Positions 1 to 6,663 of a DNA stretch of 32,000 nucleotides are shown here, in pieces. Each line of letters begins with the position of its first letter. The first letter of the stretch is position 1. The position numbers and the translations under genes are program-made. The DNA lies in contig NZ_CP011391.1 in assembly GCF_001564455.1 (NCBI RefSeq), forward strand, positions 270,001-302,000, read 5' to 3'. The stretch is from Faecalibaculum rodentium (lineage in GTDB: Bacteria; Bacillota_I; Bacilli_A; Erysipelotrichales; Erysipelotrichaceae). A model generated the notes under the pieces. It worked only from the letters and a program-made list of their open reading frames with translations. It was not told the DNA's origin and did not search any database.

Positions 1-335
1 AACCCGGGCAGACACCGGGGAAGCGGATGATGGGCATTGCCATGGCCCGCAAGGACGGAAACCCCCTGGATCTGAAGACGCTTCTGCTTCGGCAGGTCAT
101 CGGGATCCTTCTGATGGAAGGGACGCTCTACAACGGATCCGGACTGCTCCAGGACATGCTCTCGCTGGGCACCGGCCTGAACTTTACCGGCATTCTGCTG
201 TATGTGACCCTCGCGCTCACGATTGTGAGCCTGCTGGCTGCCTTCATGGCTGGAAGCCGGCGCATGATCCACGATTACCTGGCTGGAACCGTGCTTGTTC
301 CTGTGGAAGAAGACCGGCCGGACCAGATGATCTGA
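1..335 (+). CDS. RDD-family membrane protein, C-terminal part (5' end outside window)
   Basis: The reading frame is open to the window edge. It has hydrophobic segments and a C-terminal 'RRMIHDYLAGTVLV', matching the R..HD.LAGT.VV ending typical of RDD-domain proteins. Confidence 0.55.
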   Translation, partial: PGQTPGKRMMGIAMARKDGNPLDLKTLLLRQVIGILLMEGTLYNGSGLLQDMLSLGTGLNFTGILLYVTLALTIVSLLAAFMAGSRRMIHDYLAGTVLVPVEEDRPDQMI

Positions 336-362
336 ATAGATAGAAAATAAGGAGAAAAAAGT

Positions 363-698
363 ATGGACAACCTTGAACTGATTTGTTTTCAGATGATTTC
401 CAACGCCGGCATGGCCAAGAGCACATTCGTGGAAGCCATGCAGGAAGCCGAAGCAGGCAACTTTGATGCTGCGCAGGCCAAGATCGAGGAAGGAAAGAAC
501 TTCCTGGTGACAGGTCACGGAGTACACGCCGGCCTGATTCAGAAGGAAGCCGCGGGAGAAAAGACGGACCTGACGCTGCTGCTCATGCACGCAGAAGACC
601 AGCTGCTGTCCTGCGAGACCCTGGAGATCATGGCTGAGCGTTTCCTCGCCCAGGCAAAGCGTCTGGCTGCCCTGGAAGCCGCTGCTTCCCAGCAGTAG
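363..698 (+). CDS. PTS EIIA component, lactose/cellobiose (Lac/Chb) family
   Basis: 111 aa with an AAGGAGA RBS about 7 nt upstream. The three-helix EIIA-Lac pattern is present, including 'LLLMHAEDQLL' (phospho-His region). Confidence 0.9.
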   Translation: MDNLELICFQMISNAGMAKSTFVEAMQEAEAGNFDAAQAKIEEGKNFLVTGHGVHAGLIQKEAAGEKTDLTLLLMHAEDQLLSCETLEIMAERFLAQAKRLAALEAAASQQ

Positions 699-791
699 GA
701 AAACGCTTCCGGTCACCGGCGGCTGTAGCCGCTTACAATGAGTTTGTCATCAGGGAACAGCCCTGAACAAATAGAAAAAAGGAGACACAAC

Positions 792-1118
792 ATGAAAAAA
801 ATCTACCTGTTCTGCTCTGCAGGCATGTCGACTTCCATGCTGGCCAACGCCATGCAGCAGAGTGCCGACAGTCACAACCTGCCGCTGTCTGTCAAGGCGT
901 TCCCGCACAACAAGCTGGGGGAGATCATTGACAACGACCGTCCGGACTGCATCCTGCTCGGCCCCCAGGTCAAGTACATGCTGAAGGAAACCGAAGACAA
1001 GTACGGCAAGGAAGGCATCCCCATCGCGGTGATCGATGCCGGTGACTACGGCATGATGAACGGTGAAAAGGTCCTGAAGTCCGCCATCGTTCTGATGAAG
1101 AAAGCAAAAAACAAGTAA
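792..1118 (+). CDS. PTS EIIB component, Lac/Chb family
   Basis: Start moved from the track ORF (738) to ATG 792, which follows an AAGGAGA RBS. 'KIYLFCSAGMSTSMLA' is the phospho-Cys loop of EIIB-Lac/Chb. Confidence 0.9.
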   Translation: MKKIYLFCSAGMSTSMLANAMQQSADSHNLPLSVKAFPHNKLGEIIDNDRPDCILLGPQVKYMLKETEDKYGKEGIPIAVIDAGDYGMMNGEKVLKSAIVLMKKAKNK

Positions 1119-1165
1119 GATTCCCCAGAGGAAAGCAATAAGAAAGAAAGAGAGAGTACCTATCT

Positions 1166-2575
1166 ATGATGGACAAACTTGAAAAAGTCCTGATGCCCAT
1201 GGCCTCCGCCATTGGTCGGAACAAGTTTCTGATCGCGATCCGTGACGGTTTCCTGGTATCAACCCCCCTTCTGATTGCAGGATCGATTTTCCTGCTGCTC
1301 GCCAACTTCCCGATCGAGGCATGGACCAACTTCGTTGAAAACTGCATGATCGGCGAATTCTCCCTGGCATCCCTGCTCTCCAAGTGCTCCGATGCGACAT
1401 TCTCCATCATGGCAGTGTTTGCCACCATGGGCATCGGCTACACCATGGCCCGTGAAGAAGGCTCCACTCCGATCTTCGGTGCTGCTGTTGCGCTGATGGC
1501 CTGGTTCATCCTGATGCCCTTCCAGTTCAACGCAAACATCTCCAGCCTGATGGATGCCACAGGGGCTGCTGTCAACATTCCCGAAGGCGCCAATGCCGTA
1601 GTCGGCGGTCTGCAGTTCGGCTGGCTGGGTTCCAAGGGTCTGTTCGTGGGCATCATTGCCGCAATCTGCTCCGTGGAACTGTACAGCTGGGTTGAGCGCA
1701 AGGGCTGGGTCATCAAAATGCCCGCCGGTGTTCCTCCCACGGTCGTTCAGTCCTTCTCCGCTCTGATTCCCGCAACGATCGTCATGACGACGTTCTTCCT
1801 GATCAACATGATTTTCGCTGCCTGCGGAACGAACGCCTTTGACTTCATCTTCAAGTTCCTGCAGACACCCCTGCTGGGTCTGGGTGACACACTGGGTGCC
1901 ATGGTTGTGGCTTACATCTTCCTGCACCTGTTCTGGTTCTTCGGCATCAACGGCGGATCTGTTGTCGGTGCGGTATTCAACCCCATCCTGCAGACTCTGG
2001 CTCTGGAAAACCTGGATCTCTACCGTGCAGTGGGTCCGGAAGGCTACACCGTTGCCAACGGCGCACACATCATTTCCCAGCAGTTCCAGGACCTGTTCGC
2101 CACCTTCGGCGGTGCCGGTTCCACGCTGTCTTTGCTGATTGCCATGCTGCTGTTCTGTAAATCCCGCCGGATCAAGGAACTGGGCAAGCTGTCTCTGGTT
2201 CCGGGTATCTTCGGCATCAACGAACCGATCATCTTCGGTCTGCCCGTTGTGCTGAACCCCATGATCCTGATCCCGTTCATTCTGGTTCCGACCATGAACA
2301 TCGTGCTGTCCTACCTGGCCATGGCCATGGGTCTGTTCCCTCCCTGCAACGGAATCAACATTCCCTGGACCATGCCGGTGGTATTCTCCGGATTCCTGTC
2401 CACCAACTGGATGGGTGCCCTGTTCCAGATTGGCCTGCTGATCCTCGGTGTATTCGTCTACCTGCCGTTCATCAAGATCATGGACAAGCAGTACCTGGAA
2501 GAAGAGCAGAAAGCTGCCGAAGCCGGCGAAGAAGAGGAAATCGACCTGGACGACCTGTCTCTGGACGACCTTTAA
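1166..2575 (+). CDS. PTS EIIC permease, Lac/Chb family, with acidic C-terminal tail
   Basis: 469 aa polytopic protein. 'NKFLIAIRDGF' and 'GINEPIIFGLPVVLNP' are typical EIIC-Lac/Chb motifs. The C-terminus is 'EEEQKAAEAGEEEEIDLDDLSLDDL'. Confidence 0.9.
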   Translation: MMDKLEKVLMPMASAIGRNKFLIAIRDGFLVSTPLLIAGSIFLLLANFPIEAWTNFVENCMIGEFSLASLLSKCSDATFSIMAVFATMGIGYTMAREEGSTPIFGAAVALMAWFILMPFQFNANISSLMDATGAAVNIPEGANAVVGGLQFGWLGSKGLFVGIIAAICSVELYSWVERKGWVIKMPAGVPPTVVQSFSALIPATIVMTTFFLINMIFAACGTNAFDFIFKFLQTPLLGLGDTLGAMVVAYIFLHLFWFFGINGGSVVGAVFNPILQTLALENLDLYRAVGPEGYTVANGAHIISQQFQDLFATFGGAGSTLSLLIAMLLFCKSRRIKELGKLSLVPGIFGINEPIIFGLPVVLNPMILIPFILVPTMNIVLSYLAMAMGLFPPCNGINIPWTMPVVFSGFLSTNWMGALFQIGLLILGVFVYLPFIKIMDKQYLEEEQKAAEAGEEEEIDLDDLSLDDL

Positions 2576-2579
2576 TAGG

Positions 2580-2637
2580 CTGTGTATGGCCGTGTCAGAA
2601 TGATTCCCGGCGGGAATCATTCTGCACCGCCATACAG
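2580..2637 (+). other. Long imperfect palindrome (about 26 bp of stem) directly after the EIIC stop
   Basis: The core CAGAATGATTCCCG/CGGGAATCATTCTG (14 bp, perfect) is extended by GTG/CAC and CTGTATGGC/GCCATACAG with small bulges. No U-tract follows. Confidence 0.7.
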
Positions 2638-2721
2638 ATCACCCAATGCTGCCTGGACTGATAACAATCAGAAACGGGCAGACATGACAAGCGGCTTCGA
2701 GGCTGCATGACAGTCTGAACG

Positions 2722-2758
2722 CAGAAGCCGGTCTGGTCAAAAGGACCGGCTTCTGTTT
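2722..2758 (+). terminator. Rho-independent terminator downstream of the PTS EIIC gene
   Basis: CAGAAGCCGGTC-loop-GACCGGCTTCTG is a 12-bp perfect stem followed by TTT. Confidence 0.6.
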
Positions 2759-2797
2759 ACAGACAACGGTTTGAAACCCTGCAAAAGGAGATTGACA

Positions 2798-3319
2798 ATG
2801 AAACGAATCATGATGGTTTACGACCAGATCCAGGCCGGTGCCGGCACCAAAGACGACAAGATGGTCCCCCTGAAGGCCACGAAGGAAGTGGTTGGCCCCG
2901 CGGTGATGATGGACCGGTTCCTGAAGAAAAATGACGAAAAAGTCATTGCCTGCGTATACTGCGGCAACGGCACCTACAACGAAAACCCGGATGAAATCAT
3001 CCGCAAGATCACGGCTCTGGCCGCGAAGCTGAAGGCGGATGCCGTGATCTGCGGTCCGTGCTTCAACTACGCGGACTACGCTGCCATGGCTGCTGCCACG
3101 GCAGACAGCATCACAAAGCACGGCATTCCGGCCGTTGCCTGCATGTCGAAGGAAAACACCGACACGATCAGTGCCTGGAAAGACAAAGTGGCAATCGTGA
3201 AGGGCCCGAAAAAGGGCGAAACAGGACTGAACGAAGCCCTGGAAAACCTGTGTGTCCTGACCAGCCAGATGGCAGACGGCAAGGACACCAAAGAACTGGA
3301 AGCCCGGATCTGCTACTAA
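2798..3319 (+). CDS. Small protein resembling the N-terminal domain of glycine/sarcosine/betaine reductase component B (GrdB-like), function unknown
   Basis: Start set at ATG 2798 after an AAAGGAG RBS. 'VYDQIQAGAGTKDD...VVGPA...CGNGTYNENPDE...ADAVICGPCFNYADYAAMAAA...GIPAVAC' parallels the GrdB N-terminus as I recall it ('HYINQFFAGIGGEEKAD..GPG..CGD.YFNEN..PDL.IAGPAFNAGRYG.ACG..GIPA'). The gene ends at TAA, and the Sec-containing C-terminal part of GrdB is absent. Confidence 0.5.
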   Translation: MKRIMMVYDQIQAGAGTKDDKMVPLKATKEVVGPAVMMDRFLKKNDEKVIACVYCGNGTYNENPDEIIRKITALAAKLKADAVICGPCFNYADYAAMAAATADSITKHGIPAVACMSKENTDTISAWKDKVAIVKGPKKGETGLNEALENLCVLTSQMADGKDTKELEARICY

Positions 3320-3398
3320 GCGGTCCGGCCGCGACCGGATGCGGATTCCCGGTGGCCGGCTGTCGCCACGGGGTTTCGAAACAGCGAGACAGTCAAAC

Positions 3399-3424
3399 AG
3401 AGAGCGAAAGCTCTCTTCTCTTTT
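3399..3424 (+). terminator. Terminator-like hairpin after the GrdB-like gene
   Basis: AGAGAGC-GAAA-GCTCTCT followed by TCTCTTTT. Confidence 0.5.
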
Positions 3425-3528
3425 GACAGAAACGGGTGTGTGCACCCGATGAGATAGATGTGCAGCTGCCCAAACGGCAGCTCAATGAGGAACAAGCGGT
3501 CTCAGGGACCGGGAAAGGACAAACGATT

Positions 3529-4488
3529 ATGTACGGAATCATTGCAACCTGGCGCATGGCGCTGGAAGGAATCACGGAAGCCGAACACATGCTCAAGGAT
3601 GGGGCCACTGCCTCCGATGCCATTGAAATGGCCATCCGCGCGGTGGAAGACTTCGAATACTACAAGAGCGTCGGCTACGGAGGACTGCCCAACGAAGACA
3701 TGGAAGTGGAACTGGACGCTGCCTGGATGGACGGCGATGACCTGTCCATCGGCGCTGTGGCATCCATCAAGGATTTTGCCAACCCGGTCTCCATTGCCCG
3801 TCTGCTCTCCAGGGAACCCGTCAACAACATGCTCGTTGGCGCCGGTGCGGAGAAGTATGCCCACAAGATGGGCTTCGAGCGCAAGAACATGCTGACTGAA
3901 CGTGCGAAAATCCACTACCACAACCGGAAGAAGGAAGTCCAGGAACTGGAGCTGAAGCCCTATTCCGGTCACGACACCGTCGGTATGGTGGACCTGGACT
4001 CCCAGGGTTCCATGGTGGCTGCCACCAGCACATCCGGTCTGTTCATGAAGCGTGCCGGCCGTGTGGGTGATTCGCCGATCTCCGGATCCGGCTTCTATGT
4101 GGATTCTGCCATCGGCGGTGCCACAGCCACGGGTCTGGGCGAAGACCTGATGAAGGGCTGCCTGTCCTATGAAATCGTGCGTCTGATGGGCGAAGGCCTG
4201 CACCCGCAGGAAGCCTGCGAGAAAGCCGTGCAGGATTTCGACAAAGTGCTGAAGGCGCGCCGGGGCAAAGCCGGTGATCTGTCTCTGGTGGCCATGAACA
4301 ACAAAGGCGAATGGGGCTGTGCCACAAACATCGAAGGATTCTCCTTTGCGGTGGCAACGGAAACACAGGAACCCACGGTCTTCCTGGTGAAGTTCGACGA
4401 GAACGGCAGGCAGTATTTCGAAAAAGCCAGCGATGAGTGGATGGACAACTACATGAAGACCCGCACTGCACCGCTGGTCCGGAAATAA
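3529..4488 (+). CDS. Ntn-hydrolase of the glycosylasparaginase (aspartylglucosaminidase)/isoaspartyl peptidase family, cytoplasmic
   Basis: Start at ATG 3529; the track ORF begins at an upstream GTG. 'SGHDTVGMV' is the autoprocessing site, with nucleophile Thr150 at codon 3976-3978. 'AATSTSG', 'GRVGDSPISGSGFYVD' and 'ATATGLGEDLM' closely parallel human and flavobacterial AGA. No signal peptide is present. Confidence 0.8.
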   Translation: MYGIIATWRMALEGITEAEHMLKDGATASDAIEMAIRAVEDFEYYKSVGYGGLPNEDMEVELDAAWMDGDDLSIGAVASIKDFANPVSIARLLSREPVNNMLVGAGAEKYAHKMGFERKNMLTERAKIHYHNRKKEVQELELKPYSGHDTVGMVDLDSQGSMVAATSTSGLFMKRAGRVGDSPISGSGFYVDSAIGGATATGLGEDLMKGCLSYEIVRLMGEGLHPQEACEKAVQDFDKVLKARRGKAGDLSLVAMNNKGEWGCATNIEGFSFAVATETQEPTVFLVKFDENGRQYFEKASDEWMDNYMKTRTAPLVRK

Positions 4489-4502
4489 GACAGGGGCACA
4501 TC

Positions 4503-5609
4503 ATGAACAAGGAATGTGCATCGGCCCTGCTCAAACAGGCGCAGGCACAGAAACAGCCGCTGCTGACAGGACTCTTCGAGATCCTTTCCATCAACAGCGA
4601 ACGGGGCGAAGCCGAAGCCGGTGCTCCCTATGGTCCCGGCCCCCGCAAGGCCCTGGAAGAAACCATGAAGCTGGCCGAGTCCCTGGGATTTTCCACGGAA
4701 ACGGTGCTCGATCAGGTGGGGATCGCGAAGTATGAACCGGAGGGCACCGAAGGAAAACCCTATATCGGCGTGGTGGGTCACCTGGACGTGGTTTGCGCCG
4801 AAGGCGAATGGACAACCCCGCCGTATGAACCCGCGATCCGGGACAACCGGATCTATGCCAGGGGTGCCCTGGACAACAAAGGACCTGTGCTCGCCTGCCT
4901 GTATGCCCTGAAGGCCGTCCGGGACAGCGGCATGAAGCTGAACCGCCCTGTGTGGATCATCTTCGGAACCAGCGAAGAAACAGGCATGGAGGATATCCCG
5001 GCGTACCTGACCGTCAAGGAACCCCCGGTGGCGGGATTCACCCCCGACTGCAAGTACCCGGTGGTGTATGCCGAACGCGGCCGGTCGGTTTACGAACTGA
5101 CCTTTGCGGATGAAGCCCAGGCCGCTGCCTGGTGCGAAGTGCATCCCGATGAAGCCAGCCTGAAGCTGGATATCCGGGATCCGGAATTCGGCATCCTCCA
5201 GCTGCGCAACCGCAAACAGAACGGAAACACCGTGACGTTTGCCGCCAGCTATCCCCCTGCCACGGATGCAGAACGCATTCTGGCGATCCTGGAAGAGAGC
5301 CTGCCGGAAGGAGCCGGGACAGCCCTGGTTTCCGACTGGAAGCCGGTGTTCTTCAGAAAGGACGGCCCGCTCTGCGCCTCCCTGCAGTGGGCGTACGAAA
5401 CCGTCACCGGTCTGGATGGTACCCCCGTTACGACCACCGGCGGCACCTATGCCAAGCGCATGCCCAACATTGTGCCCTTTGGACCGAGTTTCCCGGGCCA
5501 GAAAGGCATTGCCCACCTGCCGGATGAATGGATGGACGTGGATGATCTCATGAAGAACCTCGAGATCTACACCCTGGCCATTGCGGATCTGGCGACACGC
5601 GAACTGTGA
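4503..5609 (+). CDS. M20-family dipeptidase (PepV/Sapep-like)
   Basis: Start at ATG 4503, 12 nt after the preceding stop. 'VVGHLDVV', 'ARGALDNKGP' and 'GTSEETGMEDI' are metal-ligand and catalytic motifs of M20A dipeptidases. Confidence 0.8.
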   Translation: MNKECASALLKQAQAQKQPLLTGLFEILSINSERGEAEAGAPYGPGPRKALEETMKLAESLGFSTETVLDQVGIAKYEPEGTEGKPYIGVVGHLDVVCAEGEWTTPPYEPAIRDNRIYARGALDNKGPVLACLYALKAVRDSGMKLNRPVWIIFGTSEETGMEDIPAYLTVKEPPVAGFTPDCKYPVVYAERGRSVYELTFADEAQAAAWCEVHPDEASLKLDIRDPEFGILQLRNRKQNGNTVTFAASYPPATDAERILAILEESLPEGAGTALVSDWKPVFFRKDGPLCASLQWAYETVTGLDGTPVTTTGGTYAKRMPNIVPFGPSFPGQKGIAHLPDEWMDVDDLMKNLEIYTLAIADLATREL

Positions 5610-5616
5610 GGGAATC

Positions 5617-6381
5617 ATGAACAGAGACATCAAAATTGAAGTCTGCGCCGGCGGCTATGCCGACTGCGTTGCAGCAAAACAGGGCGGTGCCGACCGTGTG
5701 GAACTCAACGGTGCCTTTGCCCTGGGGGGACTGACACCGACTGTGCCGGTCCTGAAAAAAGTAAAGCGGGACACCGGGCTGGAAGTCATTGCCATGGTGC
5801 GTCCGCGCGCCGGAGGGTTCTGCTACGACGCCGATGAGAAGGAAATCATGTTCGCCGAAGCCAAGAACCTTCTGGAAAACGGTGCCGATGGTCTGGCCTT
5901 CGGGTTCCTGAATGCCGATGGCGGCATCGACCTGGAGAACACTCGAAAGATGGTGGAGCTCATTCACCGGTACAGGGGAATAGCAGTGTTCCACCGTGCG
6001 ATTGACGTGACACCGGACATCGATGCAGCGATCCAGATGCTCATGGACCTGGGCATGGACCGTGTGCTGACCAGCGGGCAGAAGGCAAAAGCCCTGAACG
6101 GGGTGGATGTGATCGCTGAGCTCCAGGAAAAGTACGGTGACCGGATCCAGATCCTGCCGGGCAGCGGCATCAATGCCGGCAATGCGGCAGAGATCCTGGA
6201 AAAGACGGGCGTGAACCAGCTGCATGCTTCGTGCCGTGGCTATCGCCCTGATCCCACGACCATGGGCGAAGACGTGAGTTATGCCTACCTGCCGGCTCCT
6301 CATGAAGGCGACTACGATGTGGCCGATGAAGAGGCGGTATGCTCGTTACGACGGGCAGCGGATACGGCTGCAGCAGCGTAA
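5617..6381 (+). CDS. cutC: CutC-family protein (TIM-barrel, annotated copper homeostasis protein)
   Basis: Start at ATG 5617, 8 nt after the M20 stop. 'IEVCAGGYADCVAAKQGGADRVELN..GGLTP', 'MVRPRAGGFCY', 'FHRAID' and 'RVLTSGQ' match CutC family hallmarks. Confidence 0.85.
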   Translation: MNRDIKIEVCAGGYADCVAAKQGGADRVELNGAFALGGLTPTVPVLKKVKRDTGLEVIAMVRPRAGGFCYDADEKEIMFAEAKNLLENGADGLAFGFLNADGGIDLENTRKMVELIHRYRGIAVFHRAIDVTPDIDAAIQMLMDLGMDRVLTSGQKAKALNGVDVIAELQEKYGDRIQILPGSGINAGNAAEILEKTGVNQLHASCRGYRPDPTTMGEDVSYAYLPAPHEGDYDVADEEAVCSLRRAADTAAAA

Positions 6382-6389
6382 CCTGGCCA

Positions 6390-6663
6390 CCGAACCGGCC
6401 ACTGAGCTGTGCAGACCCTGGGTCTGCGACAGTTCAGACGCCGGTTCGTTCAGAGAGAGCCAGACGCAGGACAGAGATACGTCTGGTGAAGGGGCTGTTG
6501 TCGAAGCGGTAATACACAGATAACTCCCGGAGAGCGGTTCAGAGATGAAGCAGTTCTCCGGGAGTTTGCATTTCCATGCATGCATGAACCCTGATTGTAC
6601 CGCTCATCCAGTCACATAGCTGCATCAGATCTTTGGACTGACGCAGCTCAGTGGCTGGATCGG
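6390..6663 (+). repeat. 20-bp imperfect inverted repeats (12-bp perfect core) bracketing a 234-bp hairpin-rich non-coding segment
   Basis: CCGAACCGGCCACTGAGCTG (6390-6409) faces CAGCTCAGTGGCTGGATCGG (6644-6663). As plus-strand RNA, 19 of 20 positions pair, counting one G-U. Confidence 0.6.
6522..6575 (+). terminator. Stem-loop followed by a U-rich tract, candidate cutC terminator
   Basis: CTCCCGGAGA (6524-6533) pairs with TCTCCGGGAG (6555-6564). The stem is extended by AA/TT and followed by TTTGCATTT. Confidence 0.45.

Follow-up and report, generated by a model that had tools for sequence, protein, structure and literature searches.

What does a bacterium do with a sugar transporter of the phosphotransferase system (PTS) that is encoded in a row with an asparaginase-like hydrolase, a dipeptidase and two proteins from orphan families? 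This arrangement is found at positions 363-6381 of a 32,000-nucleotide stretch of Faecalibaculum rodentium (contig NZ_CP011391.1, positions 270,001 to 302,000 of the forward strand), the whole of which we call the window. An earlier note on this DNA had proposed that the PTS imports and phosphorylates a glycoasparagine, that a peptidase of the M20 family trims it and that an N-terminal nucleophile (Ntn) hydrolase, a glycosylasparaginase, splits it. Homology and synteny speak for this proposal, with the peptidase step as its conjectural part, and they make it highly probable that the locus is an ega-type, PTS-dependent operon for the use of N-acetylglucosaminyl-L-asparagine (GlcNAc-Asn). GlcNAc-Asn is what remains of host or dietary N-glycoproteins after attack by endoglycosidases and proteases, and the pathway would be a route by which gut Firmicutes feed on both kinds of glycoprotein.

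The genes of the operon that lie in the window are as follows (cutoffs are those of the respective family models; aa, amino acids).

1-335 (open reading frame as listed, 27-335), plus strand: 3' end of a gene for an RDD-family membrane protein (PF06271)
363-698, plus strand: PTS enzyme IIA (EIIA), lactose/cellobiose family, 111 aa (PF02255, 97 bits)
792-1118, plus strand: EIIB, lactose/cellobiose family, 108 aa, the longest open reading frame starting at 738 (PF02302, TIGR00853)
1166-2575, plus strand: EIIC, lactose/cellobiose/chitobiose family, 469 aa (PF02378; TIGR00410, 407 bits, cutoff 236)
2798-3319, plus strand: GrdB-like protein without selenocysteine, 173 aa (NF041545 'GrdB_like_no_Se', 233.6 bits, cutoff 175)
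3529-4488, plus strand: Ntn hydrolase, predicted cytoplasmic glycosylasparaginase of the EgaG/AsnA2 type, 319 aa (PF01112, 225 bits)
4503-5609, plus strand: M20 dipeptidase, Sapep/PepV-like, with a shortened lid domain, 368 aa (TIGR01887, 303.6 bits, cutoff 208)
5617-6381, plus strand: CutC-family TIM-barrel protein, 254 aa (PF03932, 190.6 bits, cutoff 23.3)

The list of open reading frames and the searches against Pfam and NCBIfam thus return, for positions 363-6381, the seven same-strand genes of the earlier note under the family names that it had given them. It had also called the gaps between them short, which is true of those of 93, 47, 14 and 7 nucleotides (nt) and not of the two, 222 and 209 nt long, that flank the GrdB-like gene and contain stable hairpins (from EIIA to CutC the gaps run 93, 47, 222, 209, 14 and 7 nt). 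Contigs of the same species that are 98-99% identical carry gene calls with the same starts and lengths; in one of them (L001, where 6523-9107 matches window positions 1-2585 at 99.1% identity) EIIB is called as 108 aa. In these contigs the full RDD gene codes for 206 aa and is the second gene of the operon, after a 635-aa regulator with HTH_11/Mga, two PRD and EIIA_2 matches. Thus the start of the operon, with the gene of a PRD-type activator followed by that of the RDD membrane protein, lies before position 1, and the next gene past its other end (6876-7877) is on the opposite strand.

Which bond does the Ntn hydrolase cut? Its family, Asparaginase_2, includes isoaspartyl peptidases, and all its members have the Thr nucleophile and bind aspartate through Arg/Asp ligands. 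On these features the locus could be read as a salvage system for beta-aspartyl peptides, with an IaaA-like hydrolase, a general dipeptidase of the M20 family and a PTS that has nothing to do with either. The closest solved structures point elsewhere, however: the best matches in the PDB are glycosylasparaginases (208 bits, 1e-60 and 41% identity to the crystallised Elizabethkingia enzyme), whereas the human, plant and E. coli isoaspartyl peptidases reach only about 125 bits and about 1e-35, and the score against the NCBIfam IaaA equivalog is 131.6 bits for a cutoff of 567. In a quick neighbour-joining tree of the sequences collected during the analysis, the hydrolase falls within a clade of cytoplasmic Firmicute enzymes, where it is 78% identical to a Clostridium protein, 62% to one from Collinsella, 57-58% to those of Enterococcus raffinosus and E. 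gilvus and 58% to an AsnA2-like protein of Latilactobacillus curvatus. This clade is sister to the Bacteroidota aspartylglucosaminidases (AGAs), the crystallised one included, and stands apart from E. coli IaaA and from the isoaspartyl peptidases linked to cyanophycin. The earlier note had likewise placed the protein nearer to AGA than to IaaA, from motifs that are all found in the window (GHDT|VGMV, GRVGDSPISGSGFY and ATGLGEDLM), and the placement beside AGA and AsnA2-like enzymes upholds it.

The residues tell the same story. The hydrolase keeps His148-Asp149-Thr150 for autoproteolysis, Arg178 and Asp181 as ligands for the free alpha-carboxyl and alpha-amino groups, Thr201-Gly202, and Trp8. 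Trp8 aligns with Elizabethkingia Trp11, which we take to be the residue that stacks on GlcNAc, and isoaspartyl peptidases have no Trp at this position; two residues further on, Met10 stands in place of Phe13 of the Elizabethkingia enzyme. NCBI labels the close homologues N(4)-(beta-N-acetylglucosaminyl)-L-asparaginase, and their genes are linked to PTS or N-glycan genes rather than to cyanophycin or glutathione genes. By all these measures the protein is predicted to be of the aspartylglucosaminidase type and not of the IaaA type, which leaves beta-aspartyl peptide salvage very improbable. Its N-terminus begins right at the conserved core, with no space for a signal peptide (as the earlier note had it), so the enzyme is cytoplasmic. 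In this it departs from the enzymes of E. meningoseptica (Elizabethkingia/Flavobacterium) and human lysosomes (AGA, EC 3.5.1.26). They have the same fold family, His-Asp-Thr, Arg/Asp ligands and Trp, but they act in the periplasm or the lysosome on unphosphorylated GlcNAc-Asn, whereas the substrate expected here is 6-phosphorylated.

Is a PTS known to deliver such a substrate? We find that the earlier note was out of date in knowing of no PTS-dependent version, for the ega system of Enterococcus faecalis had been published in 2023 (Combret et al., Res Microbiol 2024;175:104169, as described in bioRxiv 10.1101/2024.05.30.596650 and PMC11976118). The E. faecalis ega locus is described as containing EgaG, a Lac/Cel EIIB and EIIC, a GrdB-like 'putative oxidoreductase', a dipeptidase and a GntR regulator (bioRxiv 10.1101/2024.05.30.596650), and as a 'GlcNAc-L-Asn PTS' that borrows CelA1 as its EIIA (PMC11976118). 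The core families are therefore held in common with the window: a cytoplasmic glycosylasparaginase, Lac/Cel EIIB and EIIC, a GrdB-like protein and an M20/Sapep dipeptidase, with the same proposed logic of import and phosphorylation followed by hydrolysis of the amide. Combret et al. reportedly found that GlcNAc-Asn is imported and phosphorylated, that EgaG yields aspartate and 6-P-N-acetylglucosaminylamine, and that EgaR is a repressor that GlcNAc-Asn releases; ega mutants are reported to be attenuated in Galleria, and ega to be linked to virulence.

In the loci of E. raffinosus and E. gilvus the order is GntR (LSA1692 subfamily), Sapep dipeptidase, asparaginase, EIIB, EIIC and EIIA, and the window proteins are 58% (Ntn), 52-53% (EIIC), 48% (EIIB) and 44-49% (M20) identical to their counterparts there. 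The EIIC value sets this permease apart from its paralogues, since other Lac/Cel EIICs are only 28-31% identical to it and the second Lac/Cel EIIC of the same window 28%. The protein belongs to the Lac/Cel/Chb family and scores below the cutoff of every substrate-specific NCBIfam equivalog (222 bits for ChbC, cutoff 760). We predict that it is a GlcNAc-Asn permease. The window operon differs from ega in several ways: it has its own EIIA where E. faecalis uses CelA1, adds the RDD membrane protein and CutC, carries an M20 enzyme that lacks about 100 aa of the lid, and begins with the PTS where ega begins with the hydrolase. Judged by its genes, the locus is a PRD-regulated ega variant with its own EIIA, an RDD protein, a short-lid M20 enzyme and CutC. 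As to the second EIIC of the window, it belongs to an ordinary Lac/Cel PTS locus at 23792-28280, with a DeoR regulator on the minus strand, a GH1 6-phospho-beta-glucosidase (24792-26192) and a fused EIIC-EIIB (26580-28280).

Two other systems help to place the operon. AsnA2 of Lactobacillus casei is a proven glycosylasparaginase that is genetically linked to PepV (PMC6960285), so the pairing given in the earlier note, in which the alf-2 operon joins these enzymes to a permease, is correct. The alf-2 operon (Becerra et al., mBio 2020) resembles ours in its cytoplasmic AsnA2-type hydrolase and PepV-type M20 enzyme, and its substrate, fucosyl-alpha-1,6-GlcNAc-Asn, is likewise a glycoamino acid of the N-glycan core. 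It differs in working with a permease of the major facilitator superfamily (MFS), AlfH, the alpha-L-fucosidase AlfC, the sugar kinase SugK, AsdA and a GntR regulator. The window operon has no counterpart of these (its genes include no MFS permease, GH29, ROK kinase or aminotransferase), and phosphorylation is here expected of the PTS. The second system is chbBCARFG of E. coli, in which a Lac/Cel/Chb-family EIIA/B/C imports and 6-phosphorylates a beta-linked GlcNAc compound that is then cleaved in the cytoplasm. The PTS families are alike, and what follows differs: a GH4 phospho-glycosidase and a deacetylase in E. coli, an amidase and a peptidase in the window.

Are these genes together by chance? 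To address this question, we ran an alignment of the GrdB-like protein against a set of genomes in which each species was represented once. It matched 266 species (the closest genome being a Faecalibaculum metagenome-assembled genome, MAG), of which we took the best 80 loci with 10-kb flanks. Gene presence was determined by tblastn with nine operon proteins, counting same-strand neighbours over the loci that could be assessed. The PRD regulator was present in 69/72 of these, RDD in 52/73, EIIA in 67/74, EIIB in 74/74, EIIC in 73/74, the Ntn hydrolase and the M20 enzyme each in 71/74, and CutC in 66/74. Almost all of the 80 loci have the order PRD regulator-(RDD)-EIIA-EIIB-EIIC-GrdB-like-Ntn-M20-CutC, which occurs in Erysipelotrichaceae, Clostridium, Enterocloster, Hungatella, Lachnoclostridium, Butyricicoccus, Agathobaculum, Peptacetobacter and Ligilactobacillus and so spans Clostridiaceae, Lachnospiraceae, Oscillospirales, Peptostreptococcaceae, Erysipelotrichaceae and Ligilactobacillus. 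Collinsella has the same genes without CutC and in another order. In L. curvatus and other Lactobacillaceae the order is Ntn-GntR-GrdB-like-EIIC-M20 or GntR-M20-Ntn-GrdB-like-EIIC-CutC, the GntR regulator of the LSA1692 type being found in the enterococcal and Latilactobacillus loci. A further gene, for a YitT-family membrane protein (YitT_membrane plus DUF2179), accompanies 53 of the 80 loci (L008, 12804-13664, for one), either right after CutC or upstream of the PRD regulator and divergent from it. The latter is its position in Erysipelotrichaceae, and in the window species the gene lies on the minus strand shortly before the window begins (L001, 3301-4191).

The association is thus kept in about 70 of the best 80 species, and the PRD-regulated variant is the prevalent form among the gut Clostridia and Erysipelotrichia examined. 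What these species share is the ega core within a fuller set of nine genes (eleven with YitT and a MupG-like gene, discussed below), and from its presence in some 70 of them we conclude that it is a common commensal trait and not an enterococcal speciality. The same conservation bears on the most ordinary reading of the locus, that of a cellobiose or chitobiose PTS beside an unrelated isoaspartyl peptidase, a dipeptidase and a copper-homeostasis protein. The generic database names would suit it, for EIIC reaches 407 bits against TIGR00359 'cellobiose IIC', just under the cutoff, CutC carries a copper name and the hydrolase has weak matches to the IaaA equivalog. Yet a gene order kept across many families largely refutes it, the operon contains no 6-phospho-beta-glucosidase, the hydrolase is of the AGA type, and the copper phenotype of E. 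coli cutC is reported to be an effect of the small RNA MicL (PMC4102768). We give this reading hardly any credence.

The comparison also revealed that the genes travel as two modules: the GrdB-like gene goes with EIIC, and CutC with the glycosylasparaginase. In fact, a triad of Ntn, M20 and CutC genes stands alone in CP060636 and related contigs, with no ega-type PTS or GrdB-like gene adjacent to it. Another operon, 1.3 kb upstream of this triad in CP060636 (L006, 1387-8691) and in L007, codes for a PRD regulator, an M42 peptidase, EIIA, EIIB, EIIC, an M24 peptidase of the Xaa-Pro type and an aminotransferase; this pairing of a PTS with peptidases may import a sugar-amino acid or glycopeptide conjugate of its own.

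Several observations nevertheless weigh against a dedicated GlcNAc-Asn operon of the ega type. A MupG-family gene (6-phospho-N-acetylmuramidase-like) lies in or beside the operon in 51 of the 80 loci (L019, L023, L031, L034, L063 and L085 among them), sometimes between the GrdB-like and Ntn genes, which suggests a 6-phospho-beta-N-acetylhexosaminidase step for a larger substrate. In L063 and L085, the PTS and GrdB-like genes are followed by the MupG-like gene alone, and in L075 by a NanE/NanA sialic-acid cluster; with MupG, these three loci with other catabolic genes may mean that the transporter takes a wider set of beta-GlcNAc conjugates. The regulator differs too, being a PRD activator in the window species and a GntR (LSA1692-subfamily) repressor, EgaR, in ega. 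Besides, the comparison with ega uses the megaplasmid loci of E. raffinosus and E. gilvus as proxies for E. faecalis; a search that started from the GrdB-like protein of L. curvatus gave many matches in Lactobacillaceae and no named E. faecalis. The strain of Combret et al. was reportedly OG1RF, and if so the GrdB-like protein is not essential there. Its gene, intact in the window, is described as a pseudogene in E. faecalis OG1RF (bioRxiv 10.1101/2024.05.30.596650). As for the peptidase, the only genetic test of a PepV partner that we found reported, a pepV mutant of L. casei, is described as showing no phenotype on fucosyl-GlcNAc-Asn, which makes the peptidase step conjectural (PMC6960285).

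The MupG-like genes and the three exceptional loci would be accounted for if the PTS imported many beta-linked GlcNAc conjugates (chitobiose, chitobiosyl-Asn, GlcNAc-Asn di- and tripeptides, possibly muropeptide fragments), GlcNAc-Asn being one among them, and if Ntn, M20 and CutC were one interchangeable downstream module; the score of EIIC, just under the NCBIfam cellobiose equivalog cutoff (407 vs 434), is compatible with such breadth. We consider this unlikely for the window species, which has no MupG-like gene within 20 kb. Moreover, about 90% of the loci have the Ntn, M20 and CutC genes after the PTS, and the homologous enterococcal PTS is described as a 'GlcNAc-L-Asn PTS' (PMC11976118). 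A broad transporter would, in any case, overlap with an ega-type operon for GlcNAc-Asn and not exclude it.

How, then, would the ega-type pathway proceed? From the gene content, families, catalytic residues and synteny of the locus, we infer the substrate, its phosphorylation in this organism and the parts played by the accessory proteins, the RDD protein presumably among them. Judging from its domain architecture, the PRD activator would turn the operon on when the PTS transports its substrate, by way of the PTS phosphorylation state. EIIA, EIIB and EIIC would import GlcNAc-Asn and phosphorylate C6 of its GlcNAc, as orthology to the enterococcal GlcNAc-L-Asn PTS suggests, and perhaps also import very short GlcNAc-Asn peptides or other beta-GlcNAc conjugates. 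Where needed, the lid-truncated M20 enzyme would strip a neighbouring residue, freeing the alpha-amino and alpha-carboxyl groups of the Asn. The glycosylasparaginase would then cut the N-glycosidic amide, yielding L-aspartate and 6-phospho-N-acetylglucosaminylamine, and the amine would become N-acetylglucosamine 6-phosphate (GlcNAc-6-P) and NH3, spontaneously or with the help of CutC. Finally, GlcNAc-6-P would enter NagA/NagB metabolism, the genes for NagA and NagB not being in the window.

What is unusual about the M20 enzyme is its lid. Residues 9-200 align with 25-214 of Sapep and residues 244-365 with 368-490, and since the alignment skips the middle of Sapep, the lid is about 100 aa short. 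The motifs that we take to be the metal ligands of PepV and Sapep are visibly kept in this alignment. The 80 loci of Clostridia and Erysipelotrichia have the short form, residues 9-364 being covered there by one high-scoring segment pair, whereas the enterococcal and lactobacillal partners are full length (433-437 aa). One may speculate that the shorter lid makes room for a glycosylated side chain.

Where does the GrdB-like protein fit in? It matches PF07355 (GRDB) over positions 2-163 of 347 and nothing beyond, being homologous to the N-terminal 160 or so residues of GrdB, the selenoprotein B of glycine/sarcosine/betaine reductase. GrdB itself has about 430 aa and a C-terminal half with selenocysteine, which the 173-aa protein lacks, and the partners that accompany GrdB (GrdA, GrdC, GrdD and GrdE) are absent from the locus. 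The protein also falls below the cutoffs of TIGR01917 and TIGR01918 (43 for the latter, cutoff 65), and NCBI keeps it separate as 'GrdB_like_no_Se'. It is well conserved (mean column identity 72%, with Cys55, Cys85 and Cys172 invariant), and its AlphaFold2 model (pLDDT 92.9) has a flavodoxin/CheY-like alpha/beta fold, for which neither sequence nor fold searches of the PDB gave a meaningful solved relative. Its gene and that for EIIC are neighbours in nearly all 80 loci of the anchored set and in every Lactobacillales variant examined, loci without the asparaginase included. Because it stays beside EIIC in shuffled loci, we assign it to the permease: it would be an EIIC-linked accessory factor of the transport module, not part of the hydrolytic one. 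It is unlikely to be essential for transport, since its gene is a pseudogene in OG1RF.

The last gene of the operon raises the widest question. The CutC family spans bacteria to humans and has had no credible function since its copper role fell in 2014, when the E. coli phenotype was attributed to the MicL small RNA inside the gene and not to the protein (PMC4102768). A role in copper homeostasis can be rejected here on other grounds as well. The second Cys ('ELC') of the conserved pair reportedly proposed as the Cu(I) site is Asn in the Firmicute operon CutCs, the score against the NF008603 equivalog is 148.7 bits for a cutoff of 311, and there are no copper genes nearby. We also discarded a remote kinship with NanE, the N-acetylmannosamine-6-phosphate epimerase, or with DUF7916 (hhalign probabilities 2.5% and 1.6%); a DUF7916 gene lies downstream of CutC in one Clostridium and is not conserved across the 80 loci. 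The window protein is nonetheless a regular member of its family, matching the CutC structures 3IWP, 1TWD, 2BDQ and 4R9X at 1e-40 to 1e-21 and retaining the family-wide invariants: Glu8, Cys10, Arg27, Glu29, Arg62-Pro-Arg64, His126-Arg127-x-x-Asp130, Arg149, Thr152-Ser-Gly154, Gly182-Ser-Gly184 and His203 are kept in at least 93% of 77 aligned sequences, several of them strictly. Such a set of residues resembles the site of an enzyme that handles an anionic sugar.

Is the link between CutC and glycosylasparaginase peculiar to Firmicutes with a PTS? For an independent test, anchored on AGA, we searched 80 metagenome loci containing a Bacteroidota-type AGA with diverse CutC queries. Of the 65 loci that could be assessed, 32 have CutC immediately downstream of AGA in the same orientation, the gap measuring -3 to +280 nt. 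In 43 of the 80, CutC is found within 5 kb of AGA, and in all cases it is downstream and co-directional. Among annotated plasmid and chromid records, Fulvitalea has the order AGA-CutC-GH2-CBM9-like-GH92, and in Hymenobacter the stop and start codons of AGA and CutC overlap and GH92 follows. On a Microbulbifer plasmid (L096, 5051-6735), an annotated AGA overlaps CutC by 4 nt; this protein is 28% identical to the window hydrolase, has no Trp at the sugar-stacking position and does not group with the AGAs, so that it may be wrongly annotated or a different amidase partnered with CutC. Persicobacter has AGA without CutC, and in Alphaproteobacteria CutC occurs in sugar clusters, next to either a BadF-type ATPase or a ROK kinase with MurQ. 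In Xanthomonas, cutC (XAC3091) is placed in the nix N-glycan cluster and yet filed under copper (PMC6718126), and XAC3092 is described as an N-glycan-related asparaginase (PMC5700972). The three annotated Bacteroidota AGAs that we read have signal-peptide-like N-terminal extensions, two with an RRKF motif, and CutC never has one; from this we conclude that the role of CutC is cytoplasmic and independent of the PTS.

This synteny of CutC with glycosylasparaginase across phyla is the new lead of the analysis. It covers Firmicutes and Bacteroidota-type loci, and the Microbulbifer record and the Xanthomonas gene numbering suggest that it extends to Gammaproteobacteria. Our literature searches returned no functional study linking CutC to an asparaginase, a glycosylamine or N-glycans and no paper proposing such a role, and none describing a role for the GrdB-like gene, so the earlier note's remark that neither gene had a described part in such a pathway still holds. 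Given that the copper role in E. coli was a small-RNA artefact, a role for CutC in GlcNAc-Asn catabolism is a new hypothesis: the substrate of the protein may be the N-acetylglucosaminylamine(-6-P) that the asparaginase sets free, or CutC may serve the step that follows. In its full form, our proposal makes CutC a dedicated enzyme of GlcNAc-Asn and N-glycan cores, which would most likely convert glycosylamine(-6-P) to GlcNAc(-6-P) and NH3, and makes the GrdB-like protein a hitherto unrecognised accessory subunit of this kind of Lac/Cel-family EIIC; we advance it tentatively, with somewhat less than even confidence. We envision that two orphan families, CutC and the GrdB-like proteins that travel with one kind of PTS permease, thereby gain an experimental handle.

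The operon also contains the following hairpins at its junctions (z, folding z-score).

2586-2646, plus strand: strain-variable palindromic insert, 50 nt, just 3' of the EIIC stop, with a perfect 14+14 hairpin at 2596-2624
2713-2764, plus strand: GC-rich hairpin about 35 nt upstream of the GrdB-like start, with a terminator-like match
6391-6447, plus strand: long hairpin directly after the CutC stop (region 6370-6560, z = -4.7), persisting in the centroid structure

The insert is missing from the 99%-identical contig L001, and the Faecalibaculum MAG (L011) has another palindrome in its place, so that the position after the EIIC stop looks like a hot spot for small hairpin insertions. The hairpin at 2713-2764 is kept in all three genomes and is possibly an attenuator or a structure for mRNA processing or stabilisation. 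The gap that holds both (2576-2797) folds with z = -9.8 and the gap on the other side of the GrdB-like gene (3320-3528) with z = -3.1; in Clostridium loci the same two junctions measure just 12-47 nt. These structured gaps may serve lineage-specific internal attenuation or mRNA processing. The hairpin at 6391-6447 likely marks the end of the operon. An Rfam search of the operon found no known RNA element, and a promoter scan stayed at background level.

The genes that follow the operon are not conserved with it in other species. They are the minus-strand gene at 6876-7877, for an HTH_3 (XRE-type) protein whose C-terminal part is long and membrane-like, and a group at 8538-10439 for a small GntR regulator, an ABC transporter ATPase and an ABC2-type membrane protein. 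Farther on, a complete rRNA operon (16S, 23S, 5S) at 14533-19389 on the plus strand explains a strong GC-skew excursion at 14-19 kb. Unrelated to the operon as well are an alpha-amylase-family gene at 19503-20909 and, on the minus strand at 21129-22919, a gene of the MCRA family (724 bits), whose members we take to be oleate/fatty-acid hydratases.

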